DNA from: Saccostrea echinata
Lineage: Eukaryota
Direction of reading: 5' to 3'
Length of the DNA stretch: 64,000 nucleotides
Assembly (NCBI RefSeq): GCF_033153115.1
Contig: NW_026889779.1
Location: forward strand, 8,804,001 to 8,868,000
The stretch's first letter is position 1; each line of letters begins with the position of its first letter. Both the position numbers and the translations under genes were made by a program. Shown one piece after another: positions 18,837 through 63,294 of the stretch. Below the pieces are notes generated by a model. It was not told the DNA's origin. It saw only the letters and a program-made list of their open reading frames with translations, and made no database searches.

Positions 18837-19201
18837 ATCCTGAACTCTGATCTGTGACATTTTTGTTCCATTAGAACACTCCCTTGTATGTAATATAAAC
18901 AAAATATTTAAGGTACATATCTTTCTAATCAATTCACGCTAGTTTCCCATGCACCTCAACCATTTGCACTACTCCCATCATGCTTGTTCTTATGATCCCC
19001 TGTATATACATGTATACTCTTTGTTTTTCTGTTTGGTTTATCTCAGACTTTGTTTTTTACAACCCATTTATAAGATGCCTACAAATCGCTTGCTATTTAG
19101 CTGATTCCACATACCCATGTTTTTGGTTATATTCTTGCTCATGTAGTGTTTACCCTGGCTCTCTCATTTTTTTTGTTTTTTGTCGAGGTGTGACTTAAGA
19201 T

Positions 19202-22200
19202 ATGGGTATTGAAATAGCACAATATCGAGCCAGGGTGGGAAATTACTATTCAAAAGCTGCACGTTCTATTTTGCATTTAAGTGTGTTTGAAATTATTTGT
19301 ATCAACTTGATATTAAGCTTTAAAGGTAATGGAGTTCCAATTATCATGTTGATCATCTTACTTTCCGATCTTAACGAGTATTGTAAAGTTGTACAAAAAA
19401 ATCGTACTCATAAGTACTTTGCGCCATTCTCTATGCCTTCATATGCCTATATCTCTAAAAATATTAACTTGCTTACCAACTTGTCAGCACTAACTCTAAA
19501 ATTGTCAGGAGATATTGAATCAAATCCTGGTCCTTCAACAAACACAACTGAAGGCTCTTTTTCTTCATCTTACTCATATTCGTCAATTTTTGACGGTACA
19601 ACCGGGATATCATTTGTACATTTAAATGTTCAAAGCTTAAAACCCAAGCTAGACATTTTAGAAAGCGAACTGCATAACCATAGTATACTGTCATTTACTG
19701 AAACATGGTTAAACAACGATGAATCGTTTTCGGACATTTCATTAAAAAATTTCCAAATACCATTTTGTTACTGTAGGAAAAACAAAACAGGCGGGGGCGT
19801 AGCCGTGTATGTCAAAGATCACATACTTGCAAAACGTCGATCGGATTTAGAACCTGTCACGGTTGAATGCGTCTGGCTTGAAATAGTTATTCGTGGACAA
19901 ATCTATTTATACGGTACATTTTATCGTCCCCCAAGTTCACCTATAAGTATATGGGATGACATTGAATTCTCAATAGATCAAGCTTACAATACTAATATAA
20001 GAAAAATAATCATCGTTGGGGATTTTAATGCCAATCTACTTTCACCAAACACACAAGCCGATCGTTTATTAAACATTATACAGACTTATAACATGTTTCA
20101 AATTATTGAAGAACCTACATACTTCACTGAGCATTCGTCGTCACTTCTTGATATTATACTTGTAAGTAACACCTCACTTGTGGTGAGGTCTTCGGTTGGT
20201 GATTGTTTCTTAGACCAGTATGTTCGATATCATTGTCCTACTTACGGGCTCCTCAGTCAACCCCCTCTAGAAGCTCACTGTTTCAAACGGAAAATATGGC
20301 TATTTGATAATGGTGACTACACTTCCTACAGACAAAATTTAGCAAACGTAAACTGGGATGATTTACTTATTGAATCAGACATAGACAACAGCGTTTCTAA
20401 TTTAAATAAAATTATAGTCGAATGCGCACAAATGTCAATTCCCAATAAAACAGTGATCATTCGGCAATCTGACCCACCATGGTTCAACAACACTTTAAGA
20501 AAACTCATTCGGAAAAGACGTCGTCTCCATAAAAAAGCTAAACGGACTAAGAGAGATAATGACTGGGAAAACTATAGAAGTACTCGTAATCAGTGTGTCG
20601 GTCTTGTCCGAAAACTCAGAGATGAGTACTACAGTAAGCTCTCATCTGAAATTAACGTGTGCAATGATTCAAAAAAATGGTGGAAAATTGTAAACAAGTT
20701 AATAAATTCAAATTCTAAACAACCCTTTACAAATACTCCTCTTACTTTCGAAGGTAAAACATATGAAGATGACAATGAAAAAGCCGAATTACTAAATACC
20801 TTTTTCCTAAAACAGTCATCAATTGATGATCATTCAAACAGATTACCTAATACACATTCCTCTAGTAATTACGAAACACTATTTGACTTAACTCTTGATG
20901 CAACCGAAATCGAAACAGTTCTTCTATCATTAGATACTTCCAAAGCTACAGGCCCAGATCTTATTAATCCCCGTCTTCTTAAAGAGGCAGCTTCTATATT
21001 AAAATTACCATTATGTAAACTTTTCAATATGTCTCTTAAAAAAGCAGTATTTCCGATGGAATGGAAAAGAGCAAACGTTACCCCAATATATAAGAAAGGT
21101 GACAGGAATAATGTTTCTAATTATAGACCTATATCACTTATCTCCATAACCGGAAAGGTAATGGAAAGATGTATCTACAATCGTGTATATCTATACTTAT
21201 CCAACAATAATTTCTTTTGTTCAAACCAGTCAGGTTTTATTCCAGGTGACTCTACAATAAATCAATTACTTGATATATCTAATGACATAGGCAAAGCACT
21301 AGATTCCGGAAAAGAAGTAAGAGCTGTTTTTTGTGATATAAGTAAAGCCTTTGATAGAGTATGGCATGAGGGTCTCCTGTTCAAACTAAGAACTGCAGGG
21401 ATAAATGGGAATTTGCTTAAATGGTTTAAAAGTTATCTTACAAATAGGGAGCAAAGAGTAATACTCAACTCCACCTCATCAGCCTGGGGTAGCATCAAAG
21501 CTGGTGTACCCCAGGGATCTATTCTTGGTCCTCTGTTATTTCTTATTTACATAAATGATATTGTATGTGGAATTAATTGTGTAATTAAATTGTTTGCAGA
21601 CGACACAACCCTGTATATAGTAGTTGATAATGCTTGCACAGCCAGTCAGATATTAAACAATGACCTTGATAAGATAAGTGCGTGGGCTAAGCAGTGGTTG
21701 GTCGATTTCAACCCCTCAAAAACCGAATGTTTATTATTTAGCAATAAACGCATTCCAATCACACATCCCCCGCTTTATCTGAATAGCCAATTAATCGAAA
21801 ATGTGGAAAGTCACAAACACCTTGGAATACATTTTTCAAAAAATGGCCATTGGGATTTGCACATACAATCAACCCTTCTGAAAGCATCTCAACGTCTTCA
21901 TCTACTAAGAAAACTTAAATTTCTTATTGATAGAAAATCGCTTGAAAAATTGTATTTTTGTTACGTTAGACCGCTACTCGAATATGGTGACGTTATATGG
22001 GATAATATGTCCAGTGATCTTGTCAATAAAATCGAACATATCAATATTGAGGCCGCTCGCATAGTAACCGGTTCTACGAAACTTGCAAGTCTTCATAGTC
22101 TTTATCAGGAGACCGGTTGGGAATCTTTAAAAGATAGGAGATATAAACATAAAATTATACAGTTCCACAAAATGTTCTACAACCAAACTCCTCAATACCT

Positions 22201-22747
22201 TTCGGATCTAGTCCCACCACAAAATCAAGATATACACAATCATTCCACTAGACAAAAGTGTAACATCAAGCAAGTCAAATGTAGAACTGACCACTATAGT
22301 AACTCCTTCATCCCATCAACTATCAAGCTCTGGAACGAATTGCCCGATTCTATCAAACAAAACCCTTCGTTGTCAAATTTAAAACGTTATTTAAATGCCA
22401 ACAATGCAAATCATAAACCCCCTCAATATTATTATACTGGTAAACGCAAGGAACAGATATTACACACAAGACTACGACTTGATTGTAGCTCACTAAAAAG
22501 TCATTTATTTTCTCGAAATATTGTCAGCAGCCCAAACTGTAATTGTGGCGAGATTGAAACTTCTGAACATTTCCTCCTACATTGTCCTTATTTTGAAAAT
22601 CTCAGAGATAGATTTATAAACACACTTCCACATTATATCAACACCAATATATTATTATTTGGTGACCAAAATCTACCACTGGCAGAAAATGTTGCAATCT
22701 TTAAATCTGTCCAAAAATATATTGTAGCAACCAAGAGATTTATTTAA
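19202..22747 (+). CDS. LINE ORF2: N-terminal leader + 2A-like peptide, AP endonuclease, reverse transcriptase, C-terminal CCHC
   Basis: 1181 aa uninterrupted; HLNVQSL, FTETWL, GGGVAVYV, YRPP, VGDFNA (APE); NYRPISL, DISKAFDRV, GVPQGSILGPLLF, FADD (RT); CNC..HFLLHC. Confidence 0.96.
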   Translation: MGIEIAQYRARVGNYYSKAARSILHLSVFEIICINLILSFKGNGVPIIMLIILLSDLNEYCKVVQKNRTHKYFAPFSMPSYAYISKNINLLTNLSALTLKLSGDIESNPGPSTNTTEGSFSSSYSYSSIFDGTTGISFVHLNVQSLKPKLDILESELHNHSILSFTETWLNNDESFSDISLKNFQIPFCYCRKNKTGGGVAVYVKDHILAKRRSDLEPVTVECVWLEIVIRGQIYLYGTFYRPPSSPISIWDDIEFSIDQAYNTNIRKIIIVGDFNANLLSPNTQADRLLNIIQTYNMFQIIEEPTYFTEHSSSLLDIILVSNTSLVVRSSVGDCFLDQYVRYHCPTYGLLSQPPLEAHCFKRKIWLFDNGDYTSYRQNLANVNWDDLLIESDIDNSVSNLNKIIVECAQMSIPNKTVIIRQSDPPWFNNTLRKLIRKRRRLHKKAKRTKRDNDWENYRSTRNQCVGLVRKLRDEYYSKLSSEINVCNDSKKWWKIVNKLINSNSKQPFTNTPLTFEGKTYEDDNEKAELLNTFFLKQSSIDDHSNRLPNTHSSSNYETLFDLTLDATEIETVLLSLDTSKATGPDLINPRLLKEAASILKLPLCKLFNMSLKKAVFPMEWKRANVTPIYKKGDRNNVSNYRPISLISITGKVMERCIYNRVYLYLSNNNFFCSNQSGFIPGDSTINQLLDISNDIGKALDSGKEVRAVFCDISKAFDRVWHEGLLFKLRTAGINGNLLKWFKSYLTNREQRVILNSTSSAWGSIKAGVPQGSILGPLLFLIYINDIVCGINCVIKLFADDTTLYIVVDNACTASQILNNDLDKISAWAKQWLVDFNPSKTECLLFSNKRIPITHPPLYLNSQLIENVESHKHLGIHFSKNGHWDLHIQSTLLKASQRLHLLRKLKFLIDRKSLEKLYFCYVRPLLEYGDVIWDNMSSDLVNKIEHINIEAARIVTGSTKLASLHSLYQETGWESLKDRRYKHKIIQFHKMFYNQTPQYLSDLVPPQNQDIHNHSTRQKCNIKQVKCRTDHYSNSFIPSTIKLWNELPDSIKQNPSLSNLKRYLNANNANHKPPQYYYTGKRKEQILHTRLRLDCSSLKSHLFSRNIVSSPNCNCGEIETSEHFLLHCPYFENLRDRFINTLPHYINTNILLFGDQNLPLAENVAIFKSVQKYIVATKRFI

Positions 22748-38097: not shown

Positions 38098-38531
38098 TCA
38101 TCTCGGACCCTTTGGTGTTGATGGAAGACGTCTTATTGTATTCGCACTTTGACCATTTTGCATAGTTGGTGTTGTCCGACCTGAAGGCGTGGTTCTTCCG
38201 GAAGGAGTGACTCTTCCGCTAGCGCTATATGTGGGAGTTGTCCTCCCTGATCGAACTGGAGTTGATGTTTTAGGAGTCATGGGTGTTCGTGGAGTGCCCG
38301 TAGATGGCCTTGAAGTAGGAGTGTTTGATCGTGGCACATATGTGGGAGTCGGTTGTGGAGTTTTAGAGCGGGAGTATGGCGAAGGGGATTGTGAAGTCCG
38401 AGGGGAGCTGTAGGAAGAGTTCATGCCCCTAGTAGGTGTAGATGGCGGCAAGCGAGACTTTGATTGGTTGTTCGTTATATTAGAAGATGAATTACTTAAA
38501 CGCTTAGTTCTCTGTAAACTGCCCGTTGAAC
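38098..38531 (-). CDS. spectraplakin terminal coding exon, Ser/Thr/Pro/Arg tail with SRLP and SGRTTP repeats
   Basis: tag acceptor; contains ORF 38098..38451; TGA stop. Confidence 0.88.
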
Positions 38532-44500: not shown

Positions 44501-47500
44501 GTCAAAAAAATTAAATGTTATTCAGACGTACCTCATGTTTTTCAATCAATTGAACTATTGCCATTTCGTCATCTGGCAAAGCTTTAAATTTCAATTCTGC
44601 TTCTGCCTGTGGCAAGAAATCTCTCATTATCTGAACAGCATCCTGGAATTCTTCAGCCTGCAATGGTTTTATAAACTTCAAGTAAAACTATTTGATTAAC
44701 TTAAAATGTGTATATTCATTACTGTAAGATAAGAAACATATTTTAAACTAAAAAGCCATATAAACAATTCAAATTTGTTAACTGAAAGCAATAGTATGGC
44801 AGAATTGTGTTGCCAGCATCACTTTAATCTCTATGCTCTCATCCTTATAAGTGGATAGTGTACAATACACTAACCAGTTTGAGCGACTCTCGCAGACGGC
44901 TTTCTCTGATGTCCGCCAAATGGTTGACACGGTCCCATGTGGTCTCCAGCTCTTCCAGATGAGCAGCGGGAATATCGCCAGAGGCTTTCATTGCTGCCAC
45001 CGTTTGTTCCCGCGCTCCAAGCTCCTGCTGCATCGTCTGCCAAAATAACACTTTTTTATAACTATTTGTTTAAATAGGTAATTGTTTTGCTGTAATCTAC
45101 CCATGGACTTCTAAACGGCTAACAACAAACTTGTTCGAATTAATGTTTTTAACCTATAAATATAAGGAATAATGATTTTACAGCGCAAAAGCAAATTACA
45201 AATCTATTTAATTTTTTTATTCAAACACATCACTTTATATTCCAGTTTATCACTAACCTTGTGCTGCTCAATGAGCATGTGGATGGTGTCTGTGTCACCC
45301 ATAATCGGCTGATCCTCTGCCAGGCTCGTCTCCGCTTTGCCTAGCCATTCTAGGAGGGAACTGATAGCGTCCGCCACCCTTCCTGATGTCAACAACGCCT
45401 CGTCTAGCTTGTTTTGGCTGCAAGAAACACAGATGCCTAATTCTCAAATTGTAATACCCAAAAGCCAATTTTCATGCCAAATGGTAAGTGTTCAATATAG
45501 CCGTATTACGTTTTATAAATTTCTCTTCGCCTACGATGGTTGCTTTGGATGCAACATTTGCAGTTGTTATATTTTCAATTTATGCAAATTAACCCAAAAA
45601 GAAGAGTCGAATTACCGAATTTCTAGCGAACGTTTTCTATATACTATCTGTAAATATAAGGACAAGTCCACAAAACAAGATAGTGTAGTTTATTAAGTAA
45701 GTGAAATGCTGTGAATGTGACAGTCATATTTTTTTAATTTTATAATTCAATTCAGAGTGGAATAAATTCACCCAGTAGAATTCAAACCTCATCTTGCTAC
45801 TTTCGACAACCCTTTTGAAAGAAGAGTCCCGAGGTTATTCTAAGGGAGATTAATTTTCACTGCGTATAAGGAAATTTCGCGCCAAAAGACCACAAGAGGT
45901 AATCATATCCGTAAATAATTTGCTATTTAAACTGAACTTTTTAAAAATTTTCTTATCATATTAGATACAGATAAGGGTTTTCTGAATGGAAAGCGTTTCC
46001 TGTGTCAATACAAGTATTTTAGTCCCTACTTTATTCACCGAACTAACCAAAATATTTTCTATTCTACTTAAATCTAAACCCTTTATCTGAAGGTTCTAAA
46101 GGGCGATTGAAGCTAGAATTCTGTTCTCAGTTATCACAGATACAAGTCCCTGAGGAATTCTAAAAAGAAGTTTTCTACTGGTAAATTGATATAAATAATT
46201 ATATTGAAATATTTACAGGAGAGTTAAACAGAGCAACTGAAGCATTACGCATTTATAATTTTTGAATAAATGAAAATGATTGATATGAAATTCAAGAATG
46301 ATTGGAATCCATGTTTCAAATACAGCTGAATTTGAACAATAAGGATATCTCGATATGCTGTTCATTCCAAGATGTTGCATAAAACGACACTGTAAATAAG
46401 CAATTGGCGATTTGCCGCCATTTTGAATCACATGGTCCTGTGTGAAGGCGTTATGGGTCAATCTCTCACCTGGGTGACATTAATGTCAGTCTTGGGATGT
46501 GTTCTTGGGTATACGGTGTCGGTTCTCCAGGTGAATCGAAAGGCATAATTAGCCTATCCTGTATAAATCCAAGAACCAAATTAACATCCTCTAATTTACA
46601 CAGGTGTATCCTTACAGCAGACGACAGGTAATCGTCAACAGGGTCTATCCCTGTACGGTAATGTATAAAAATACAAACATATTGTTCACCGATAATTTCT
46701 TACGTCCACATTTGTAACCCTTCTCCTTTCACTTTAATTTTGTTTAGCGTACCCTCATAATCTTTCCAGTGAATCCTTATTGGTTCTTTATTTCCTATTT
46801 AATGCAATAACCTCAGAGAACTTTAAAATACAGGGGGTCATCCGCTTTCCTTTGCTATTTCAATGAAAAGAAGATCGCTTCCTCGCATCAATCATTCACA
46901 CTATGCAAATATCCAAGTAAATAAAAACAGCTCAAAATAATATTGATCCAGAAAATAACTCCCATGTATTAATAATATCGAGGTACATATAAAGTACTTA
47001 AGGCTTCAACCTTATACTCCTGTACCAGATGTTGAGAACAGCCAGATTCGCTCTATCGACCGAATTCAAATCACGAACGAGGTGTCTATAGACCTTTTCC
47101 TTGCTCTACCCAGTCCATTGGTTTATCTTTTTATTCTCCCAGGTAAACATAGCCGATACAATCTGTTCTAGATAGGATAACATATAAATCGCATATATGT
47201 AAACAACAGAAAGTAGTGATTCCCTACTATATGCATCAGTTGTCTTGTATTCTTGACAGTCCGGGTTTGGGGGCTTATTATTGTCCTGAATAATAAATCA
47301 AAAAGGCCTGCTCACGAAATGGAAGCGAATCCCATTGAGAATTCGCAATGATGAAAAAAAAAAAAATTCCATATTCATCTTCCTAATTATCCATATAAAA
47401 CATTTCCATCACACTCTGCACTCTAACATACATCTTAAGAGACATTGCTTGGTTGTTGCTGTTTTTTTTATCTGCAGGTGCCAAATGTTTGGTTCACAGA

Positions 47501-50500
47501 GTACGTGACAAAGAACAAATTCTGAAGACGCTATGGATCGATAAAAGACCATCAAGTCACCCTACACCCGACTAAACACAACAGTCACACAGAAAGGAGA
47601 AAAGAGCTGTCTTCAATTGACCGGCCTATTGACTTCACATAAGCACTTGTCTGTTGGTCTAATTGGCCGTAAATGGGGGGTAGATGATGGCCGATGGATC
47701 ACCCAGATATATCATCTCCTGGTCCTTACAAAGCACGAAGACAATACTGCCGTTTGTATAGACACCATGGAATTTCACGCTAAGTGAGTCCTAATTCACA
47801 TCTTTATACAAGATTAAATTCTTAATGCATTAGGATTAATGAAATATTAACAATTAGAAACTCTTTGCCATACATTTGGCTTAAATTAACTAAGAACCAA
47901 TATGAAGTTGAAAATACATATATGTATATGTAGTTTACATGTATATACAAAATTGTTTAGCTTACAGAAAAAAACACGCTTTTGATAAATTAAAAGACCT
48001 AGGAATCAGCAGATTTACATAGAGGGCGTAAATGCAAACATATTTGAAATCTATTAACATGTAAACAGTTTCCTATATGTTGTTTAAACCACTTTTAAAC
48101 TGACTACATTAAACATTAAAAAGGGTGAGAAGTTTAGTGCTTTTTGGGCATTTCGAGACGGTTTGATACACTAAAAAGTTCAGACTTGAGGTTATCAGAT
48201 GGACTATATACAGTATATATTACTTCAAAATCGTTTTCATAACCTTCAAAGTAGTCTACACATGTGTAATTTTCCTAATTAATAAATAATATCACAAACA
48301 ATATAAGATTACAAATCTTTTAGTTTCAAGTCCAAAGCAGCACAAGAACCTAAACTGTATATAAAGCTAAACTCAACCAATGTAGAGTAGGCGACTGCAT
48401 GACCAGTCTCTAGCTTGTTTTGAAACTGTCATCTTAACATATCCCAAACACATTCATATACACAATATTCTTACACAATGCACCATTATATTCTTTCCGA
48501 GGGCATTTTGATAAAGCTTTATAATATATGTATACCATATGTTATGCATGCTGCTAATCATTTTGCTAATCATCTTTGGGCTGGGGAAGGGGGTTATGAG
48601 GGGATTTGTAGGGAGTTATTTAATAAAATCAATTATGTTATTCATTTGTGGAAAAATCTGGAAATCAAATACTCTATCTAATGGCACTGCATGTATGTTA
48701 CTGACCTCCTAGATACGACAGAGCGGACAGCGTTCCATTTATTTTTCAATTCATCCAGCATTTGTTGTAGGACATCTCGTTCAGAATCAGCCTTTGTGCA
48801 CCTGTCCTTAAGATTTCTACCAAGTCTCGTGGCTGAGTAAAATGCCTGATGTTTTGCTGCCAGTTGATGTTGGAACCTCTATAAAATCCCAAAGCAAAAA
48901 TTGTGTTTCATTTATATGTAAAATGCAAGGTGTTGATATAATTTAAGAGGCATAAGAGACATTTGCTATTATACTGTGTATGAAATTCAACTGCAGTGCT
49001 AAAAATTGCTTTGTAGTTATTTGTATGAGTACTTTTTATCTGTTAGAATAATATTTATTTAACGGTAATTCATTAAATCACGTCTGCAGTAAGGTTAATG
49101 TACTTGGTGACACAAATTACATTGATCACAACAATTAAATCGAAACATCAAAAGTTTACAGACCTCCAAGTCTCTATCAAATAATTATCTTTTCCTGTTG
49201 AGCGAGTCTATTAAAATATTTCTTTAATGAATCAGTGAAAGACTATTTTATACGAGTAACAGGTCTGACAAGATAGCCAGAGAGAAGATAAGGACTATTA
49301 TCTTAATGCGTTTGACTAACAACAAAAACTGCCTCCGGCAGTTAGTGTATAAATATGCATATTATCATATGTATTTTTATGCACATCTTAAACTGCTTTA
49401 TAACAAATGAGTTATGTATTAGAATAGAAATTTTGCATTTTAACAGCTGTAAAAATTATAATCTAGAATAAAAAAAAAGATATAGTCAGTTTTTCCTGTT
49501 ATGCTGAGTCAAGGACAAAGAAGGTAAAGCAAAATAAATGGTTCATTTATGTGACATATGTAATAGTTATCTGTATGTTCGTTTTTATTTCTCATGTCAC
49601 AAAATGACCCCACTGATGCATATGATTACCGTACAGATTGATATTTTTGTGTTTGTATACAAGGAAAAGGTATGTTTTAAATGTCTCCAATCGTCAATGA
49701 AAGGACACCTGTAAACTATTTCCTGAATTAAATGAATTTCGCTAATTAAATTCTTACCTTGATTAAGCTTACTAAAATCCTGTGAAATAAATATTATCTA
49801 AGGATGATGCACGTACTCGGATGACTTTAGGTATACACTTTAATCAACGATGACATTAACAATCGCCCGATACAGGTGTATATTTTACATACAGGTATAG
49901 CATTACACTAAGTAAAAGGGGCACACGATAGGGCAAAAAACAAAAAGGGTCAATATATCATCATGGACCCCTAAGGCCACTATATCAAAGACACCTGTAC
50001 AAGTCTTTTTACTCAAATATTACACCGTAAATACATTTTCAAAATTATGATTTATGAAGTTATAATTCGTAAAATACGTAAAACTAAATGGTCCCCCAGG
50101 TCATTGAACCGTATAGATTACCAATCAGTCAAGCGTACATTAATTTACTTGTCCGACTGTATATACTCAGAAGGCTGCACAAAGGGATGTATTGGTGTTT
50201 AGGTGGATGTAACTTGTTTGTATACAAAAGCGGGCATTTACTGGGAGTATATGACAATCTTCTCTGGAATGTACAATAGTGTGAATCAGATGACAGTCTA
50301 GTCCATTGCTTTACAGATTTAAAAAAAAAAATCAAATTTCAGGGAGCATAAAACGCACTGACGCAGAAAACGTGATGGTCGGCTGACATTGTGTCATAAC
50401 ATCACCTCTGGTACTTTATGTAGATGAGACAATGCAACCAAATTTTACTGAACTAAAAATGCCTGTATTATAATTCTCATAGTTAACCTGAATATCCTTG

Positions 50501-53500: not shown

Positions 53501-56500
53501 GTAGTATAGGTTAATATATGCTACGTAGTTACGTGATTATCAATGGTCACGTTAAAATGCTACACAAGTATGATACAAACCCCTTGAGGTTCAATATATA
53601 TGTTACTCGCAAACACCTGCAACATAGTTTATAGGAAGACGTCAACCAAAGCAAAGAAATACACACCTTGTCCACTTATAGAGATGTCAATTAGAATAAC
53701 ACAGTCTAATTGTATTACATGGTGTATTGATAAAATATATACATATGTACTATTGACGATTTGATTTTCATTAGAATCTACTTGTTACGTATTTATGTTA
53801 CTTTCTAAAATATTACAGTATGTTTTAAAATTTAGAGATTTACTAATGAAAAAGAAAGTTAATATTATCTTCCAAACACTTCAAACTTCAGAACATTTTC
53901 TATTTTTTTATGCTAAGCAAGCATATTTTTGTTAGTTTTTAATATATTTCCATTTTTAGAATACATGATATTGTGATATAATACAAAGAGAATTATGAAC
54001 ATTATAGATTTGTATCATTTATCATGTTCATGCAACATACTTCGAAATAAATATCGGATATATGATTCATGCAATTCATAATATGTGTTATAAAACATTA
54101 CCTTCAGTTCCTCTATTTGGGATTTCAGAGTCTTTGGATTACTGGAGGGTATCTCCATATCATCAAGGGCTTGTTCTGTTAGAGGCATCCAAGTCATAAT
54201 CGCCTGCGACAAATAAAGTAATGGGTCATTTTACGATCAGTAATATTTTTCTGAAAATCATGAAATTTGACAAAATTTTACTTACTTCTTGGAGCTCTTG
54301 GAATTTTTCAGTGTGGCCAAGTGCCTTCTTTAGGTCCTCTTCCCTGTCACGTGCAATATCATGCACATCATCTGCTAAGACATGGATGTCTTCCAACTGT
54401 TTTCTGATCTCCATCAGACCTGGGTCACTACACAGTCCACTAAGTTCTTCTCCTAATTGTCTGCACTCTTCAAATGAAAGTCTTGCTTTTCCAAGTTCTT
54501 TTCTTAATTCCTGATACAAATAAAGATAAATAATGATTCTTCCCGATTTCACTTTAAGTTGCGTATGAAAGTAATTTTAAGATTACAATTTTCTCTCACC
54601 TTTAGTTCCTTTTGTTGTTCTTCAACAGTTGAGGAATCTACACCTGGTGGTTCTTGAGAGAGGAAATTGTCCTTTAGATCCCGTAAGTTAGAAACTGTTT
54701 CATTACAGGAGTCAAAAAACTTCTCTGCTACCTTCATGGCACTAGATAATTCTGCTTCCCTTTTCAAAGCAGCCTCTCTGTTTTGATTATTCAGCGTTGC
54801 TATTTCTGTTAACTTTAACTTGAGGTCTTCAGCTAATCAAAGCAAAAATGAAATAAAATTTAATCAAATCTCAACCTTAAAAATTTCAGTAATCCATTGT
54901 TTTTTAGCGTGACTCAATGAACTTTCTTATACCTTCTGCAGGATCATCCACTCCTTGATCAAGAACTTTCTTTACAGCCCCATCAGCTGCTGCAATAGCT
55001 GGACGTTGGTTTTCCAGATCTTCTAGTAATAACTAAAAGACAAAAACAATAAATATGAGAAGTACACCGGTTTGTTATTAATAATTCTTGTAATTTATAT
55101 ATCGGTTTTCCATCTTGAATTCTAATACGTGACTTACATTGTTTTGTCTGATTTCGTCTCGCAATTTATCAGGACTTGCTGCCACAGGATCTGCTGTTGC
55201 CAAATCCCTGTTCAATTGCTCAAGATCTCCTAAAATGTGATCCAATGAATCTGAGACCTCCTGAGTCATCTTACTCCTAGCAACTGTAAGCTCCTTAGCT
55301 TTCTCTCTCGCTTGAGTTTTAAGCTTTTCATATTGTTCATTGTATTTTAAAAGTTTTGTCTGAATATCTCCAGCATCATCTTCACAACATAACTCCATTA
55401 ACTCCAAACCCGTGGTATTCAGATCTTCTAGGAAAGGTTTGTGATCCTCAATCTTCTGTTGAGTGTCCTGCAAAAGAAGCACAAATGTCAAATACCAAAT
55501 GTTACATCTTTGTTGTTATTGTCTTGCATTATTTGTTTTAAGGTTGGATTTTTATTGGCTACATATGCCTATTAACGATGTACTTCTAAAAACTCTTTTC
55601 TTTAAGTAAATTTTGCATGTTTTAGACATGTATGTAAATTCTCTAGACTTTGGAGCTATTTTTCCTCTTACACTCAGTAATCATATGATAAAAAAATGAA
55701 TTTTAAATAAATAAAAAAAATAAATAATTGAATTGTTATTCAGAGCAGGGATACTGTCTGTCATCCCTTTATAATTAAAGATTGTAACTTTGCTCCCCAA
55801 TGGAAACTTGGAAACATTTTTTTTTCAGTTTGATTTTCTCTTGATCATTCAACAAAGCAAAATCGAAGAAGACATAAATTTTAGTCTGAAAGACTGTTTG
55901 GTGCATATGTTTGATTTTTTCTTTTTTGTATTCTGAAAAAAAAAACAACTTATTATTTGGACTTTAACATGGGTAAAATCAAAATTAAGCTAGAATGCTT
56001 ACTACATGCATCTTTTTTTTAACGAACCTTAATATTATCCAACTGTTTTTTCACTTGTTCTAAAGTGTTTCCTGGTGAAGAATGAGCCTTTAAATCTGCT
56101 TCCATTTCATCAAGCCAGCTATGAATCTCCGTTTGGTTTTCACTGAAGTGTGTTGCAAGAGGAAGGGCCGATTCCAGTTGATGCAGTCGCTCTGCACTTA
56201 ACTGACAGACAATATCAGCCTGTGTTTTGATGCTTTCTAGCCTTGATTTGATTTCATCTGTTTGGGCATTGGTAGTTTCACGTAACATTCTGTTACACTT
56301 GTTGATAATGTCTTTGACTGCATTTCTCTTTTGATTTAGATCCATGTTGAATGACTACAATGAAATATGTATTCATCTATATTACACTGACTGCAATTAA
56401 ATATGTCTTATTGTATTTTTTCAAAAACACATCATCGACTATTTCCACAAAGATGTCACTTGACTTTAAAATTAGTTTGATAAAAGCAATAGATGGGTAT

Positions 56501-59500
56501 ACCTGGTGGTCATGAAGTTGAATTGTGAGAGTTTCTGGTTCAACATTGACTGGTTCTGCTGTGTTGATTTCATTTTCAGCTTTATCTAGGTACTTCAACA
56601 TTCCATCAATCTCCGTTAGAGCCTATAATGGTCAATATAGCTTTATCCCATAACAAATCCTAGTAAAAATTTATAAAGATCGTCCTATTCAATCTTTTCT
56701 TACCTCCAACGACACCTGCTGCACTAGATATTCCGTTAATTCATGCCATTTTACTTCTACCTCTCCAAGGCATTCCTTCATTGCAAACTGATCACAAACT
56801 CGTTCATCCTCCATAATCTGTTTTGCTGATTGTCTGAGTTTTTCCATATCATATTCTTTCTCCCGCTTGTCATTATATAACACATCTATCTTGGCCTTTA
56901 TAGCCTTCTGATTTGCACCCTTTTGTCTCGTTTTTAACGAACTAATTGCATCAGTAAGCCATGAGTCCATCTGACCAATGTTGTTCTCTAGTTCGGACAC
57001 ACTGCATGCCACGTCTTCAATTTCCATGGTTATCTGATCAGCCTCTTTCTCTACTTCTAACATTCTAAAAAAAATTACAACTCAATGTATTTGCTATTAA
57101 ATAGCATTGTGAATAATAGTTATTCCTTTTTATTCCATAACATTGAACAAAACCTCGGGCTATTTACAAGTGTATTATTTTACTAACCTTTCATTCAGTT
57201 CAAGGATTATACCCTCTGCATCATCGTCCGAGGTATTTTGTCCAGTTTCTCGAGATATCCTATCCAAGAGTGTTTTGTTTGTTTCTATTTCCCCATTAAG
57301 GAGACGTTGTTCCTTTAACTGATTGCCAAGTCTATCCTTGTCCAGACTAATTAATGGTCGATCTCCTAACGTGTTCTCAGTCTCTGATATCCATCTCAAA
57401 AGTCCATCCAAACGGTTCCTAAGGTTTTGCTGCTGAGATACAGCCGACGAAAGCTCTTCTTCTTTCTCACTTATTTCACCTTGTAAAGCTTCGTGTTTTC
57501 CTTTCATCTCAGTCATTGATTTCTTAACTTCTTCTGCTTTTTGCTTCATGTTTATTTCATTTAAACCCTTGACCAATTTTTCACCACTTTGAAGAAAATC
57601 CTTCAGTTTTCTGTCTTGTCCTATGAGATCTGCTTTCAAATCTTTAATTGATGCAAGGTCTTTTGCATCCTTTTCCGGATTTTTTCCGAGACCATTTCCA
57701 TGAATGTTGCTAAGCCGAGCCTCGATTTGAGGATAAACAGAAGAAAGTTTGTCCTTTAAATCATCGAAACCTTTCTTCTGTTTCATCAAGGCAGCAAGTC
57801 TTTCCATATGCTTAGAACAGTCACGTGATACATCTTTGTACTTTTCTTCCAAAGATTCGATTTCATCATCGATGATATTGTTGTCAACTTCTTCCTTGAT
57901 GGGAGGCAGAACCTGAATTCGCTGACGATAAGCTTCAGCCTCTTTCTCGAATTCCTGGAGAAAAAAAGATCAACATAGAAAGAACGTGAAGATATTAAAG
58001 AAAATACGACTCAACAGACAACAGCAACACTTACTCTACCACATTTTACGAAGAAGTCGAAATGTTGACATGTACAAAGATCAACATCATCATCTTCTTC
58101 ATCGCTGTATGAGTAATGGTTAGTAATAAAAACTTTTCTTTTTTCTATTGAAGCCATTACACTCACGTCACTGATCACATTTTGCACTCATTAATATCAA
58201 GTACATTCCATGCACATGCCAGATACATATATACGATCTAGTTTCTTTTTTAGCCCAGTTCTCCCTTTTGCTTTCTGGCATGCTTTCAAATGAGCTACAA
58301 GAATGTCCATTTCTTCAACAGTTTAGGTAGGTTCCATCTCAGCAAGATTTTAATCAACAGTATTTCTAACTTTAGTTAGGCGAGCGATTTATCAAATTGT
58401 CTACACAGTACACTGAACTACCCGAGCTTCGATCAGTGATGTTTCAAAACACAGTAGATCGATGAATAATTCATGGATATGATGTATCAAACACAATTGA
58501 AAAACTAATTTGAAATTTAAAGAAATGTTGATCTCCGTCAAAGTGATGCCAAGTGTTTATTTCTTGCTATCTTCTACTGCACACAATTCTCTCTGAGAAT
58601 GTCGTTGTGAACTTCTAGATTAAAAGGTTTTGTAAATAAACCATTGTGATAGCAGTGAAAGAGCTTGAATGAAGAGGTGGATAACGGACGTAATCGATGA
58701 TAGAGACAGAAATTTTGTAAACCGATTAATTCCTTATCTTCCGCTTTCTTTTTAAAAGTTTTATGACAACATCAAAAATCAGAGGATACCAGGTGTGTTG
58801 TGAGCCGTAGAAAAAACAAGGATTATGAATTTGTGTTCAAAAGTTATACAAGCATTTATTCTGTAGATAATGCAATGATAAAAAAAATCAATTGCATTTT
58901 GTGCTATACGGATTTTAAATCATGAATTTTTATCGATAATTCATGCTAGTACTCTATAACAAAATGTAAAAGACTGGCCTGTACAACAAGGTTTTAAAAC
59001 GTAAACCAACTTCTCCAGATGTCCAATATCTCATCGAAAGGGTATACACAGTAATACTACACTTGCAAAGTTAAAACTTTACTTCGTTTTACTAGATTAA
59101 ATAATGCCTCTGCAGTGCATATTATATGATTTATATTCTTTTCAAGAGCAGTTTAACGAAGTTATTGAAACATTTTAAGACTTTTTAAAGTATTATTGAT
59201 CATAAGGAAATGCTTGAGGATCTGTTACTGAGATTAAAGGATCAAGTATTCAAACACCAGTGTTAAAACAGAACGTCAAGGTTATTTTTCTTACGTATTA
59301 AACACTCTTTCAGAGTGTTCTTATATATTTAAAAAACAAATTAATATTTCCTACCTCAAATATTTCCTCGATTGATTGACATTGCAATTCATGTACATCA
59401 GCCGCCATTACTAAACCTATCCAACTAAAAATGCGTTAACAATCACCTATGTCTCAACCCATGTCGCCACCCGCTATCTTTTTATGCTTAATAATCATTA

Positions 59501-62123
59501 CTCTTGCATATCTCACATCTTTGTGTGTAAAATATCCGATATCCCAAATCAGCGATTTAAAACATTAAAGAGCCAATGATTCGCAAAAGGGTAAGAATTT
59601 ATCATATGTTTATATATGCTGTGACCAATCTATTGAAGAGGGTTTTAATTCCACTTTAAAAAGACAAACAACAATAAACTTTATCCCGACACCAGATCTA
59701 GCCAACATCACCTCTCTTAAAAGCATTCATCTTTTCACTTCCATACAAGTGTCACTCTTTATTAGACTCTTTATTAATATTTCTCAACATATGGTATATT
59801 ATTAGCTCTAGATATGGAAAATCAATTAAATGGAAGAGACTATAGTGAATATTTAAAGTTCCGTCACGGTTATTAATCACACTTCAATTTCATTGAAAAT
59901 ATTATCCACTGATATGAATCTTAAATCTAAAAGAATCTTCTGGTAATTAAAACCTTAAAATGAAATGTAAACGATGAAAGATATTTTAAAAATAAGATTT
60001 TTAGTCTAAATTTATTAAAACAAACAACTTAAATCATCTGCATGTGTGGCAGAAATGTTTGTCTACAATGTGCACACATTTTTTTTAATGTCCCTCTCGA
60101 GAATTTTTCAGTGGAGAGGCCATCACTTGCCGGTGGAGGGCTGCAAATTTAGACCTATATTCGGCATCAGGGCCATTGAGTAGTGCTGCATCGATCTTTT
60201 TCGTGCCAGCACCTAGTGCGACACGGGACCTCGGTTTATATGGTATCATCCAAAGAACCGGTCTCCACGTCCCGCAGTGGGATTCGAACCCGCGAAATAA
60301 GGATCAACTCCTTACTCCGCGACTCTAGAGCAGACGCTATATCAACTGCGTCAAGCGGGCGAGGTGCACATATGTAAACAAGACATAAATATCAATTTTA
60401 ATTTTGGATAATAATTTCAATTGAGATGCATAAGAATATACAAATTTTGAGGACTTAAAAGGTTACCAAGATCGGGGATTTAATATCTACTACTGTAAAA
60501 TCACTATTTTTCGTAGGATTTTAATCTTAATTTTATTTGGTACGGAGCGACCCATGAATTCATGTCTTTCACGACATATTCAAATGTCTGACGATAGTAT
60601 CATGGTTCTTCTTCAAACACAAAATCAAAACCATAAAATGTTGATCAACAAAAACTTAAGAAAGTCATTGTAATATATTTTTTTTTACTTGTCTTTCCGT
60701 TAAAAGCAATGAACACTTCCTGAAAAAAGATACCATGATTATAAGGATTATAAACATATTCTGTAATTCCGATATATCGATGCGCTCAAGAATATGTACC
60801 TGTGCTGTATCTCGGAAATCATCAGCCATCTTGATAAAGCCCGAAATTTCAACTTCTTTCCCTTGTAATTCTTCGACAAATTCCTAAAAAAAAAAATTCG
60901 GGTGTGAGACTTTTTTTTAAACTTGCCAATATTCAACGTACATCAATGGACATAAATATTGAATTTCTTGGTTAAATAAGATATTACCTTGAAATTGGAC
61001 CCTAACAATTTTTTATGTCTAACGAAAAACAGTACTATATGAGAGTACAATATCGGAGTACTATAACGGTACCTTAAAATCATTATATTGGTTGTAAATG
61101 TTATCCTTGGAAGATTGAAGGTCACGTGACTTCTCTATTGCCTGATCCAACCATTGGTCGATGTCTTGTAATGTCTTGTAGAACTGTTCCAAGTCCTCTG
61201 TCATTTTCTGGAAACGCTTTCGTCTGCTTTCAGTTTCACCAAAAGCCTTGAAAGGAAAAAAAAATCCATGCTACACTGTCTTTATAAAGACCAGTATACA
61301 GTAAATAAAAAAAAGCAAATGATCTTTTCTTGAAAAACTTTGCATTAAAAAAAAACCAGCGTTCCTTGCATTCTGAATTAATGATTTCATTCATTCAGTT
61401 CTTCTCTAACATTGCTTCCAGACAGCAATGTATCATTGAGTATACTTTATATATTATATCAATATTCAGTAATTTTCGTAATCAGCCTTTTAATAAAACT
61501 ATATCAATTATATTTTCAAAAAGGAAACTTCTCCAGAAATGTAAGAAATTAGTATATGTAATATTTATTAATATGTTTTCAAATCTAGAATTGTATTCTA
61601 AATGATAAATCTGTTGTATTTTAAACCCGTTTTATAATTTCCGGGAGAAAAGAAATCTAGTATAAAAGGTGCGACTTGACTGTATCTGGGAAACAATATA
61701 TCAAATTTTACAAAAAATTCTTTCACATTACACCGAAGCCTGAAAAAATCCATTTACACAGGTAATTTCCAGAAATTTATGATCCATTATGATAAATAAA
61801 TGTTGAACTGTGAATATCATAAAGAGTACATATAACCAATCACTTTGTTGACCTTTCAATTTTCAAAAATTTGCAAAAACGAGTCTAAAATTAAATAAAA
61901 ATATTGCTGTGGTAATTTTTAAATTTTAAACTACTTTGAATACAGATGAGATACCTACAGCATTGAACCTGATTTTAAGATCAGACACATTAAAGCGGAG
62001 TTTTTGAATCTGCTGAGCGCCATCTTCCTTCCGGTCCGTCTGATTGTTATCGATGAGCTCCTCCGCCTGCTTGATGGACGCAGTCACACCAGCCTTCCTC
62101 CTCACCATGTCGTCTTGCATAAA
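38098..62123 (-). CDS. MACF1: Spectraplakin (MACF1/dystonin/short stop family), 3' portion; 33 exons, 2228 aa in window; spectrin repeats + 2 EF hands + GAS2/GAR + Ser/Thr/Pro tail
   Basis: Hand-spliced GT-AG exons join in compatible phases, total 6687 nt (divisible by 3) ending at TGA 38098-38100. Diagnostic motifs: [18 protein letters not shown] (EF hand), [56 protein letters not shown] (GAS2), many spectrin-repeat W/L helices. Symbol is family-level; orthology untested. Confidence 0.93.
39140..39259 (-). CDS. spectraplakin exon, Ser/Gly/Arg-rich tail
   Basis: cag acceptor, G|gtaggt donor, 120 nt phase 1/1. Confidence 0.8.
39992..40132 (-). CDS. spectraplakin exon ([11 protein letters not shown]...SSTSS)
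   Basis: tag acceptor, G|gtatta donor; KGRTN motif follows GAS2 in this family. Confidence 0.88.
40667..40784 (-). CDS. spectraplakin exon, GAS2/GAR C-half ([23 protein letters not shown])
   Basis: tag acceptor, G|gtaaaa donor; hallmark VMVRVGGGW motif. Confidence 0.95.
41145..41282 (-). CDS. spectraplakin exon, GAS2/GAR N-half ([27 protein letters not shown])
   Basis: cag acceptor, AGA|gtaagg donor. Confidence 0.92.
41397..41509 (-). CDS. spectraplakin exon, EF hand 2 (degenerate; [32 protein letters not shown])
   Basis: cag acceptor, CAT|gtaagt donor, phase-compatible. Confidence 0.88.
42042..42204 (-). CDS. spectraplakin exon, EF hand 1 ([12 protein letters not shown])
   Basis: ORF 41977..42204; tag acceptor, C|gtacgt donor. 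Confidence 0.93.
42293..42425 (-). CDS. spectraplakin exon ([29 protein letters not shown])
   Basis: cag acceptor, GAG|gtaaaa donor; resembles last spectrin repeat NPR..L..KW..VW. Confidence 0.92.
42543..42683. repeat. 69-bp tandem duplication (2 copies) in intron
   Basis: GCATAAG.ATGCGTCTAAA.AGAAAGTACAGTAATATGATGGTTTAAC...GGGGGG twice. Confidence 0.92.
42689..42786 (-). CDS. spectraplakin exon (EFHEEVTSK...GRHYG)
   Basis: cag acceptor, AG|gtaagt donor (phase 2). Confidence 0.87.
43773..43961 (-). CDS. spectraplakin exon (LLQRAKNQE...LLAWL...KEHL)
   Basis: cag acceptor, CTG|gtgagt donor. Confidence 0.9.
44300..44443 (-). CDS. spectraplakin exon (KFQEELRNH...CHPNAI...TRWDQ)
   Basis: tag acceptor, CAG|gtaaac donor; CHP motif typical of late spectraplakin repeats. 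Confidence 0.9.
44532..44657 (-). CDS. spectraplakin exon (AEEFQDAVQ...IEKHE)
   Basis: cag acceptor, GAG|gtacgt donor. Confidence 0.88.
44875..45036 (-). CDS. spectraplakin exon ([10 protein letters not shown]...ESLKL)
   Basis: cag acceptor, CTG|gttagt donor. Confidence 0.88.
45258..45417 (-). CDS. spectraplakin exon (QNKLDEALL...LEWLGKAE...EQHK)
   Basis: cag acceptor, AAG|gttagt donor. Confidence 0.9.
46470..46546 (-). CDS. candidate alternative exon [25 protein letters not shown](S)
   Basis: ATG, open frame, AG|gtgaga donor in phase 2 matching exon 45258-45417; also an in-frame cag acceptor giving exon 46470-46558. Confidence 0.55.
48706..48878 (-). CDS. spectraplakin exon ([10 protein letters not shown]...[11 protein letters not shown])
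   Basis: tag acceptor, AG|gtcagt donor (phase 2); not in ORF track. Confidence 0.88.
51172..51291 (-). CDS. spectraplakin exon ([12 protein letters not shown]...DDLK)
   Basis: aag acceptor after T tract, AAG|gtaaga donor. Confidence 0.87.
51475..51681 (-). CDS. spectraplakin exon (KLKTELEQH...EDKR)
   Basis: ORF 51469..51666; tag acceptor, CGG|gtataa donor. Confidence 0.88.
51825..51980 (-). CDS. spectraplakin exon (DKLSEHLRN...TEWLNNAE...EEHN)
   Basis: cag acceptor, AAT|gtaaat donor. Confidence 0.87.
52071..52550 (-). CDS. spectraplakin exon, spectrin repeats
   Basis: ORF 52035..52547; tag acceptor, AAG|gtatgt donor. Confidence 0.9.
52685..52840 (-). CDS. spectraplakin exon ([10 protein letters not shown]...KKLQ)
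   Basis: aag acceptor, CAG|gtaagt donor. Confidence 0.87.
52953..53120 (-). CDS. spectraplakin exon (SNKSDIHPH...IADRE)
   Basis: cag acceptor, GAG|gtacta donor. Confidence 0.88.
54102..54203 (-). CDS. spectraplakin exon ([10 protein letters not shown]...EELK)
   Basis: cag acceptor, AAG|gtaatg donor. Confidence 0.87.
54286..54510 (-). CDS. spectraplakin exon, spectrin repeat
   Basis: within ORF 54226..54552; cag acceptor, GAA|gtaagt donor. Confidence 0.9.
54600..54832 (-). CDS. spectraplakin exon, spectrin repeat
   Basis: overlaps ORF 54549..54767; tag acceptor, AAG|gtgaga donor. Confidence 0.88.
54933..55032 (-). CDS. spectraplakin exon ([11 protein letters not shown]...DPAE)
   Basis: tag acceptor, G|gtataa donor (phase 1). 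Confidence 0.85.
55138..55467 (-). CDS. spectraplakin exon, spectrin repeat
   Basis: ORF 55078..55491; cag acceptor, AAT|gtaagt donor. Confidence 0.9.
56028..56354 (-). CDS. spectraplakin exon, spectrin repeat
   Basis: ORF 56019..56345; tag acceptor, AAG|gttcgt donor. Confidence 0.9.
56503..56622 (-). CDS. spectraplakin exon ([12 protein letters not shown]...HDHQ)
   Basis: tag acceptor, CAG|gtatac donor. Confidence 0.87.
56704..57064 (-). CDS. spectraplakin exon, spectrin repeat
   Basis: ORF 56689..57063; tag acceptor, GAG|gtaaga donor. Confidence 0.9.
57188..57954 (-). CDS. spectraplakin exon, spectrin repeats (EFEKEAEAY...LELNER)
   Basis: contains ORF 57175..57852; cag acceptor, AG|gttagt donor (phase 2). 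Confidence 0.9.
58035..58157 (-). CDS. candidate alternative first exon [41 protein letters not shown]
   Basis: gtaATGG context, 41 open codons, AGA|gtaagt donor, phase 0, 80-nt intron to exon 57188-57954. Confidence 0.55.
59355..59408 (-). CDS. candidate alternative first exon [18 protein letters not shown]
   Basis: gtaATGG context, GAG|gtagga donor, phase 0 matching exon 57188-57954. Confidence 0.5.
60080..60363 (-). mobile_element. tRNA-derived SINE (copy 3), intronic
   Basis: same head and body; TSD GTGCACACAT / GTGCACATAT (60070-60079, 60364-60373). Confidence 0.87.
60491..60672. mobile_element. possible degenerate TA-flanked MITE
   Basis: TACTGTAAAATCACTATTTTTCGT start, weakly matching ..CATTGTA end. 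Confidence 0.3.
60800..60883 (-). CDS. spectraplakin exon ([10 protein letters not shown]...RDTAQ)
   Basis: poly-T tag acceptor, CAG|gtacat donor, phase 0/0. Confidence 0.82.
61073..61246 (-). CDS. spectraplakin exon ([10 protein letters not shown]...DQWLDQA...NDFK)
   Basis: aag acceptor after pyrimidine tract, AAG|gtaccg donor, spectrin repeat helix with WL; not in ORF track. Confidence 0.85.
61959..62123 (-). CDS. spectraplakin exon ([10 protein letters not shown]...KIRFNA)
   Basis: cag acceptor, GCT|gtaggt donor, phase 0/0, helical spectrin-like. Confidence 0.8.
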
Positions 62124-63189
62124 CTGTATATAAAACATTATTATAACGATTTTAAATATATATAAATCATAATTTCATCATAAATTATTGTAACAATGCA
62201 CAAAATGAACTGTAATCATCACCTGTCTTATCTTTTAAAGGTACAACTTGACAGTGGTATAATAAAAACAATGAAGTTTTGTCTTCCAATATAACCAAGT
62301 TCGACAGGAATACAATCCGATCGCTAAGTCATAAAGATGACAATCATCAAAAATACTACAGTACCCTATCTATGTCCAACTTATTCCATCGAGATCATCA
62401 AACAGGTGAATAAGGACAGTTTTCCGAAGTAAATTCCCAACAAAAGATACTCCAATGAACTAGAAGACCATCAGTTCAAACTAATTGTCATCTGATAAAA
62501 AGAACTACACAAAAACACATTCCAGAAAAAAAGAAGAGAGATCAAGAAAGTTACATAAGTGAGGATTGGTATGTATAAAGGCTTCTCATAAGAGAATCAC
62601 CCCCAAAAAGTGGCAAAGAACATTTTGTTTTGCTGATTAAGCCGCACTCTATTTAACCCCACGGTTTAAATGTTGGCATTCATTGTATTACACATGGTTA
62701 TTAGAAAAAAGCTAAGTCCAGCCATAATATGTCTAAAACCTACACATTTGGTACTGTTTTGATCCAGTGACTATTTTGGAATAAGCTTTTGATAAAGAAT
62801 GCATTTAATTACCCTTTATATATCATTTATTTAAGCTAAGAATCTTGTTTTAATCATCGTAATTGATTGTTTGTGAAACTTCTATCACCTCATCCGTTTT
62901 CTATCATCAAAAGAAGACGGTGTCGTTACACTTGTATAGAGCTGAACGTTTCTACAATCAAAGCTGTTCAAAACATTTGAATGAAATAACAGTTTCTGTC
63001 CATACTGGTACTCTACTCGTTTTCAATCAACACGTTACAATATATACATGCCTTAATGTCAAATCTGTTACTTCGTGTATATTTCTCTTAAAATGTCTTT
63101 AATTACTGTACTTACATAAATTGAATTTCTTATATTTTGAGGATAATATTTCTCTATGTATCACTGAAGAAGATTTAATTTTCACTTAC

Positions 63190-63294
63190 TTCTTTGTTGA
63201 ACTTTAAAGAAAGTAACACGGGCTCTTCCTCTTTGACACATTTATACCGCTCAGATATCCTATAGATCTTACGTTTTTTGACAAGTTTCATCAT
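63190..63294 (-). CDS. candidate alternative first (or cassette) exon MMKLVKKRKIYRISERYKCVKEEEPVLLSLKFNKE
   Basis: ATG ATG, open frame to GAA|gtaagt donor, phase 0 matching exon 61959-62123; in-frame TAA upstream. Confidence 0.4.

Follow-up and report, generated by a model that had tools for sequence, protein, structure and literature searches.

A CH-less spectraplakin paralog in the oyster Saccostrea echinata and its candidate internal first exons

Dystrophin and the spectraplakins are the described systems closest to a gene that we examined in the oyster Saccostrea echinata. The gene lies on the minus strand of contig NW_026889779.1 (RefSeq assembly GCF_033153115.1); the whole stretch of 64,000 nucleotides (nt) analyzed, from 8,804,001 to 8,868,000, is called the window and numbered from its first letter. 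The dystrophin isoforms Dp260, Dp140, Dp116 and Dp71 come from internal promoters, according to the part of the source available (PMC7372313). For the spectraplakins Shot, MACF1 and dystonin, the available parts of three sources (PMC3352950; bioRxiv 10.1101/122010; PMC8012552) describe several promoters and isoforms free of the actin-binding domain, such as Shot D and MACF1c; an extra MACF1/dystonin exon may serve as an alternative start. The starts described there vary the N-terminus of one CH-encoding gene, and the reviews give fly and worm a single spectraplakin gene, with variety arising through promoters and splicing. Plectin repeats have been noted in molluscan spectraplakins (PMC9145010), in a source whose available part makes no mention of a second spectraplakin paralog. 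We found no literature on such a paralog or its internal starts, in a search that subscription journals lay outside.

By its sequence, the window gene is a second spectraplakin paralog, found in molluscs plus Capitella, that has lost its CH domains. We consider it likely that this paralog has internal promoters, with the conserved first exons C and D at least, and probably also A and B (Table 1). The basis for this reading is the exon sequences and their phases, the peptide conservation of C and D, the absence of CH domains and the paralogy. The internal-start mechanism itself is ordinary: it is of the dystrophin type and already present in automated annotations of other molluscs.

Two plakin-type genes of the genome end in GAS2: the window gene and, on another contig, a canonical one in which CH domains, the whole plakin region and long plectin exons are all present. 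No CH actin-binding domain was found in 264 kilobases (kb) around the window gene; the same queries gave nine matches each on the canonical gene's contig. A CH domain is listed in none of 21 SH3-bearing orthologs (from a search of proteins up to 4984 amino acids, aa), and fresh Pfam scans of the Mytilus, Mizuhopecten and Capitella orthologs were CH-free, with a CH-bearing control positive. A preliminary description of this DNA took the internally started isoforms to be special in lacking the actin-binding and plakin domains. The actin-binding half of that claim is wrong, since the full-length gene itself has no such domain; what the isoforms would drop is the plakin remnant, together with plectin repeats and rod length. 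A quick tree of 36 rows, built with proteins chosen from search matches, places the window gene, 15 molluscs and Capitella in one clade with full support (SH-like approximate likelihood ratio test, SH-aLRT, 100), apart from the canonical oyster gene. The nearest row to the window gene is Pinctada, 74% identical. Orthologs are about 3430–3575 aa long across bivalves, gastropods and cephalopods, and the Capitella model has 2805 aa.

Beyond the window end lie one plectin-repeat exon, a few plakin exons that encode a diverged SH3, and the first coding exon. The latter stands 10.4 kb past the end and matches residues 1–21 of the mussel and scallop orthologs; its short N-terminal motif is common to 12 of 15 orthologs. 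No complete plakin domain was found in the window gene or its orthologs, where the SH3-containing part alone remains; the SH3 stands at about residue 240 in orthologs vs 803 in the CH-bearing control, and the likeness of the window gene to the canonical gene ends at this part. Plectin repeats and a spectrin-repeat rod are both present in the family, as are EF-hands and GAS2, followed by a low-complexity tail. The order of plakin SH3, plectin repeats, spectrin rod, EF-hands and GAS2 is like that of Shot, MACF1 and dystonin, as far as the available parts of the sources describe it (PMC3352950; bioRxiv 10.1101/122010; PMC8012552). Unlike them, this is a separate paralog that has lost the CH domains and half the plakin domain, and its candidate starts lie deep in the rod. 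The tail may differ as well. SxIP-type 4-mers occur in the tails of 2 of 14 ortholog proteins vs all three canonical controls (the window gene has one SRLP), whereas 12 of the 14 carry a conserved RRLP-S/T-TP motif or a close variant (R/K-R/K-LP), which may fit a class I SH3 ligand.

In the window the gene model has 33 exons, from exon 62123 (exons are named here by their first base on the minus strand) to a stop codon at 38100–38098. The preliminary description pointed to four intronic segments, here exons A to D, each with an ATG, an open frame, a GT donor and the phase needed by the next rod exon. All four are present on the minus strand, and the isoform lengths given for them are reproduced exactly, stop-free, from the 33-exon model. 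In line with that description, three of the segments share large introns, which prove to be the two largest of the gene, of 3288 and 2845 nt (B, C and D), and the context gtaATGG is common to two segments, those starting at 59408 and 58157; exon A lies in the fourth largest intron (2110 nt), and exon C is 80 nt upstream of exon 57954. Donor scores are 8.3 for A, 9.8 for B, a moderate 5.3 for C and 10.3 for D, with a gene median of 8.7. Ranked for exon-like codon use among open intron frames, B falls in the top 3%, A in the top 4% and C in the top 18%. Exon A and the intron holding B and C are single copy in the genome, and no notable DNA likeness was found among the neighborhoods of the four exons.

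Exon D is the best supported of the four on sequence comparison. Among 152 collected proteins that cover its junction with more than 5 upstream residues, 24 have fewer than 130 residues there. Ten of these show nothing but canonical upstream sequence, and four look like intron read-through (their N-termini were dropped as likely gene-caller artefacts). Six species account for nine unique starts: Sinanodonta, Physella, Patella vulgata, Littorina, Pomacea and Acanthosepion. A matching peptide lies internally in the Mya model. The Physella acuta starts are three RefSeq isoforms (X1, X3 and X4, including XP_059145967.1). Patella vulgata has XP_050419452.2 (RefSeq X2, 747 aa) beside a 3476-aa X1, and the Littorina saxatilis short form KAK7111685.1 shares its locus tag with full-length forms; Pomacea offers one named model plus one similar spliced contig. 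The automated short models at this junction are 695–817 aa long. We compared the last 11 residues of exon D, ungapped and anchored at the junction, against a null of 2407 acceptor read-through peptides. Sinanodonta (p 4e-4), Mya (8e-4) and Physella (8e-4) match, Patella weakly so (0.05), and the four read-through peptides, which served as controls, do no better than chance. The oyster-type, Mya, Physella and Patella peptides agree in the distance at which a Pro, and likewise a Met, stands from the junction. The intron at this junction in the canonical paralog is only about 190 nt. At the junction of exon 45417, five Dreissena RefSeq models include a 17-residue aromatic cassette exon; the corresponding intron of the window, where exon D lies, showed no counterpart.

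For exon C, the evidence comes from a Cys-His motif. Pecten maximus RefSeq isoforms X2 and X3 (XP_033728283.1 and XP_033728284.1; 2162 and 2156 aa) have two different start peptides at the junction with exon 57954, and the unique stretch of a Mytilus model there runs to 450 residues. Both Pecten starts and the Mytilus stretch end in a motif like the DLCTCQHFD of exon C, with p of 3e-4 to 4e-4 each against a null of 7200 GT-ended peptides. One read-through N-terminus at this junction was dropped as a likely gene-caller artefact.

The automated Pecten, Patella, Physella and Littorina models are like the isoforms proposed here in their junctions, their similar sizes and their partly homologous leader peptides. 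They are unreviewed and named "dystonin-like" or "MACF1 isoforms 6/7-like", names that mark neither the paralogy nor the missing actin-binding domain. As with dystrophin, in the part of PMC7372313 available, there are unique intronic first exons in a spectrin-repeat gene, N-truncated forms and a C-terminal module that is kept; unlike dystrophin, that module is the microtubule-binding GAS2, the full-length form of the paralog has no actin-binding domain, and the promoters are inferred here. Each candidate would be a unique coding first exon; all four are intronic and in phase with the next exon, and orthologous models exist at two of the junctions. First-exon conservation was seen for C and D, with no match for A or B in an oyster-free sample.

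Several points weigh against internal first exons, beginning with chance. The preliminary description allowed that some phase matches could be fortuitous, and the bare pattern does sit at chance level: over 19,449 intronic bases, an ATG, a frame open for 15 codons or more and a GT donor no weaker than the gene's weakest occur together 10 times in phase, and such matches average 9.0 in the out-of-phase sets and 10.7 in the reverse-strand sets. The ATG-frame-GT pattern proves nothing alone; therefore conservation decides. A strict filter (strong donor plus exon-like codons), with thresholds chosen after the data had been seen, leaves A, B and D in phase vs none in five control sets, for a background of 0.42–0.56 per set and P of 0.009–0.019; looser donor cuts give P of 0.06 and 0.40. 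Exon C fails this filter on both donor and codons, and its support is conservation. Other in-phase candidates, at 60757, 58281, 53625, 49148, 46380 and 41946, were rejected for weaker donors and intron-like codons. It is conceivable, if less likely than a fuller set, that C and D alone are real and A and B are chance matches, leaving two short rungs instead of four. About 0.5 strict-filter matches are expected by chance, no start resembling exon A was found among 121 proteins covering its junction, and no peptide matching exon B among 132 covering the junction with exon 57954. These protein samples are redundant, with at most 15 members per cluster and no oyster, so the missing orthologs are a weak negative; an oyster full-length protein turned up in no protein search. 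Against chance, the donors of A and B are at or near the gene median and their codons exon-like, no control set yielded such a match, and Pecten has its two starts at B's junction. The only starts at A's junction among the 121 proteins are four Acanthosepion models with a 10-residue stretch unlike A, dropped as a likely gene-caller artefact, and a likeness of the end of exon B to a clam exon (p 0.02, then 0.25 in a second comparison) was also rejected. Exon A is weakly like the beginning of exon C (shuffle p 0.004, best of 6 pairs). The balance on sequence features tips slightly toward A being a real first coding exon, and a little further for B. The proposed ladder of four N-truncated isoforms accordingly holds up in part, for C and D through orthologous models and peptide conservation, while A and B have sequence-level support.

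The other objections concern what the conserved segments are. The Littorina, Pomacea and Acanthosepion peptides are unlike exon D in the junction-anchored comparison, so starts there may have more than one origin, and the motif of exon C is absent from the same intron in a clam contig, for which reason exon C may be confined to the group of mussels, scallops and oysters. The orthologous evidence on starts consists throughout of automated gene models rather than curated cDNAs or mapped start sites. The segments might be internal cassettes, or second exons after non-coding leaders, with no adjacent promoters. The Mya model holds its exon D homolog spliced internally, Dreissena has a different cassette in the same intron, and upstream of exon D there are two frame-preserving AGs (46610 and 46553) and a fair acceptor (46558). 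We regard this as improbable: upstream of B and in the open stretch of C no frame-preserving acceptor was found, therefore neither can be an in-frame cassette, and six species have Met-initiated models at D's junction. A non-coding leader would move the promoter and leave the protein unchanged. That all four are artefacts, by chance here and by gene-finder read-through or split models elsewhere, is very hard to credit. Read-through peptides do occur at these junctions (five proteins in the collection) and the gene is split in several assemblies, but the in-register peptide similarity across distant bivalves and a snail beats both null sets, which the read-through peptides do not, and in both Patella vulgata and Littorina the long and the short forms are annotated at a single locus, on a long scaffold.

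Assembled contigs add the ordinary splice. No run with this sequence is recorded as RNA, but four were guessed to be so (from 2 studies and no more than 3 samples, depth 3–13); their contigs, compared at 57760–59760, contain the junction of 60883–60800 to 57954. They leave exons B and C uncovered, which is uninformative as contigs drop rare forms, and assembled contigs cannot reveal transcription starts. One 276-nt contig from one of these runs spans intron positions 58805–59077, between B and C; it could be unspliced RNA, DNA, or the leader of an exon C transcript. A metagenome scan queried with exon 62123 gave no matches. A further candidate internal start comes from a clam-like ortholog (7450–7893, plus strand), one intron upstream of the B/C intron: an acidic frame of 148 codons that begins with ATG and ends at a GT, a strong donor of phase 0.

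Table 1. Features of the window gene, with positions counted from the first letter of the window.
Feature	Position	Strand	Remarks
Exon A	63190..63294	-	unconfirmed candidate; 35 codons, would join exon 62123 in phase 0; 2263 aa predicted
Exon B	59355..59408	-	unconfirmed candidate; 18 codons, would join exon 57954 in phase 0; 2105 aa predicted
Exon C	58035..58157	-	41 codons, phase 0, to exon 57954; predicted 2128 aa; acidic run and DLCTCQH motif
Exon D	46470..46546	-	25 codons plus 2 nt; donor in phase 2 for exon 45417; 771 aa predicted
Constitutive rod exon	61959..62123	-	would receive exon A
Constitutive rod exon	57188..57954	-	would receive exons B and C
Constitutive exon	45258..45417	-	would receive exon D; starts ten residues ahead of an intact spectrin repeat
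Gene body in window	38098..62123	-	spectrin rod, EF-hands, GAS2 (41282-40667), Ser/Thr/Pro/Arg tail
Tail motif RRLPSTP	38200-38110	-	stands where canonical spectraplakins have SxIP

The surroundings hold further features. Of three motifs tried across the four large introns (64233–45418), CAGGTG/CACCTG has 10 matches in 10.5 kb vs 3.4 per 10 kb elsewhere; one match is the donor of exon D, and three lie in a 2293-nt intron (51171–48879) with no supported exon. The intron holding B and C contains a short interspersed element (SINE) like tRNA-Ser (60060–60360, minus strand), with 4344 candidates genome-wide and copies about 87% alike; an ARAGORN call of tRNA-Leu at 7366–7457 (plus strand) may be another SINE. 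A two-copy 69-nt tandem repeat is intronic at 42543–42683. Downstream of the gene, an intact 1182-codon frame (19199–22747, plus strand) has the endonuclease and reverse-transcriptase domains of an element of the long interspersed (LINE) type. Upstream is a cluster of at least five long single-exon frames, presumably innexins judging by a motif.

How the products might work can be outlined from the domains. Transcripts would begin at promoters in the enlarged introns, and their first coding exons would be joined to the rod exon that follows. Forms A to C, of roughly 2.1–2.3 thousand residues, would drop the plakin SH3 remnant and the plectin repeats. All that form D would keep, behind a disordered leader, is three spectrin repeats, the EF-hands, GAS2 and the tail; it is predicted to be a compact microtubule binder. 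In the predicted fold of the Patella short isoform, with a mean predicted local distance difference test score (pLDDT) of 64, residues 1–24 form a disordered leader, followed by three spectrin repeats, the EF-hands, GAS2 and a tail that is likewise disordered. In Shot, GAS2 plus the tail bind and stabilize microtubules, auto-inhibition requires the actin-binding domain, and both that domain and SxIP are dispensable for the tendon-cell role (from the available part of the Shot review). By analogy, all forms of the paralog are predicted to bind and stabilize microtubules via GAS2 plus the tail, as open, actin-independent binders. Lacking an actin-binding domain to fold back on, they would escape auto-inhibition and would not be actin-microtubule linkers of the canonical kind. 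The alternative starts would set spacer length and anchoring, and the short leaders are putative targeting tags.

A broader picture can be offered tentatively. An ancient lophotrochozoan duplication may have left one gene to keep actin-microtubule cross-linking, while the other became a length-tunable microtubule stabilizer without actin-binding domain or SxIP; it would have a four-step ladder of internal promoters, a mollusc-wide mini form of 750 aa, and Cys-His and Pro-x4-Met leaders and an RxLPxxP tail that address partners. Molluscs and at least one annelid seem to possess a second spectraplakin gene unable to bind actin in the usual way, with a short form kept at one junction in bivalves, gastropods and a cephalopod. 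The short form would be a natural small version of the C-terminal constructs engineered for actin-independent roles of Shot, and can be cloned and tested.

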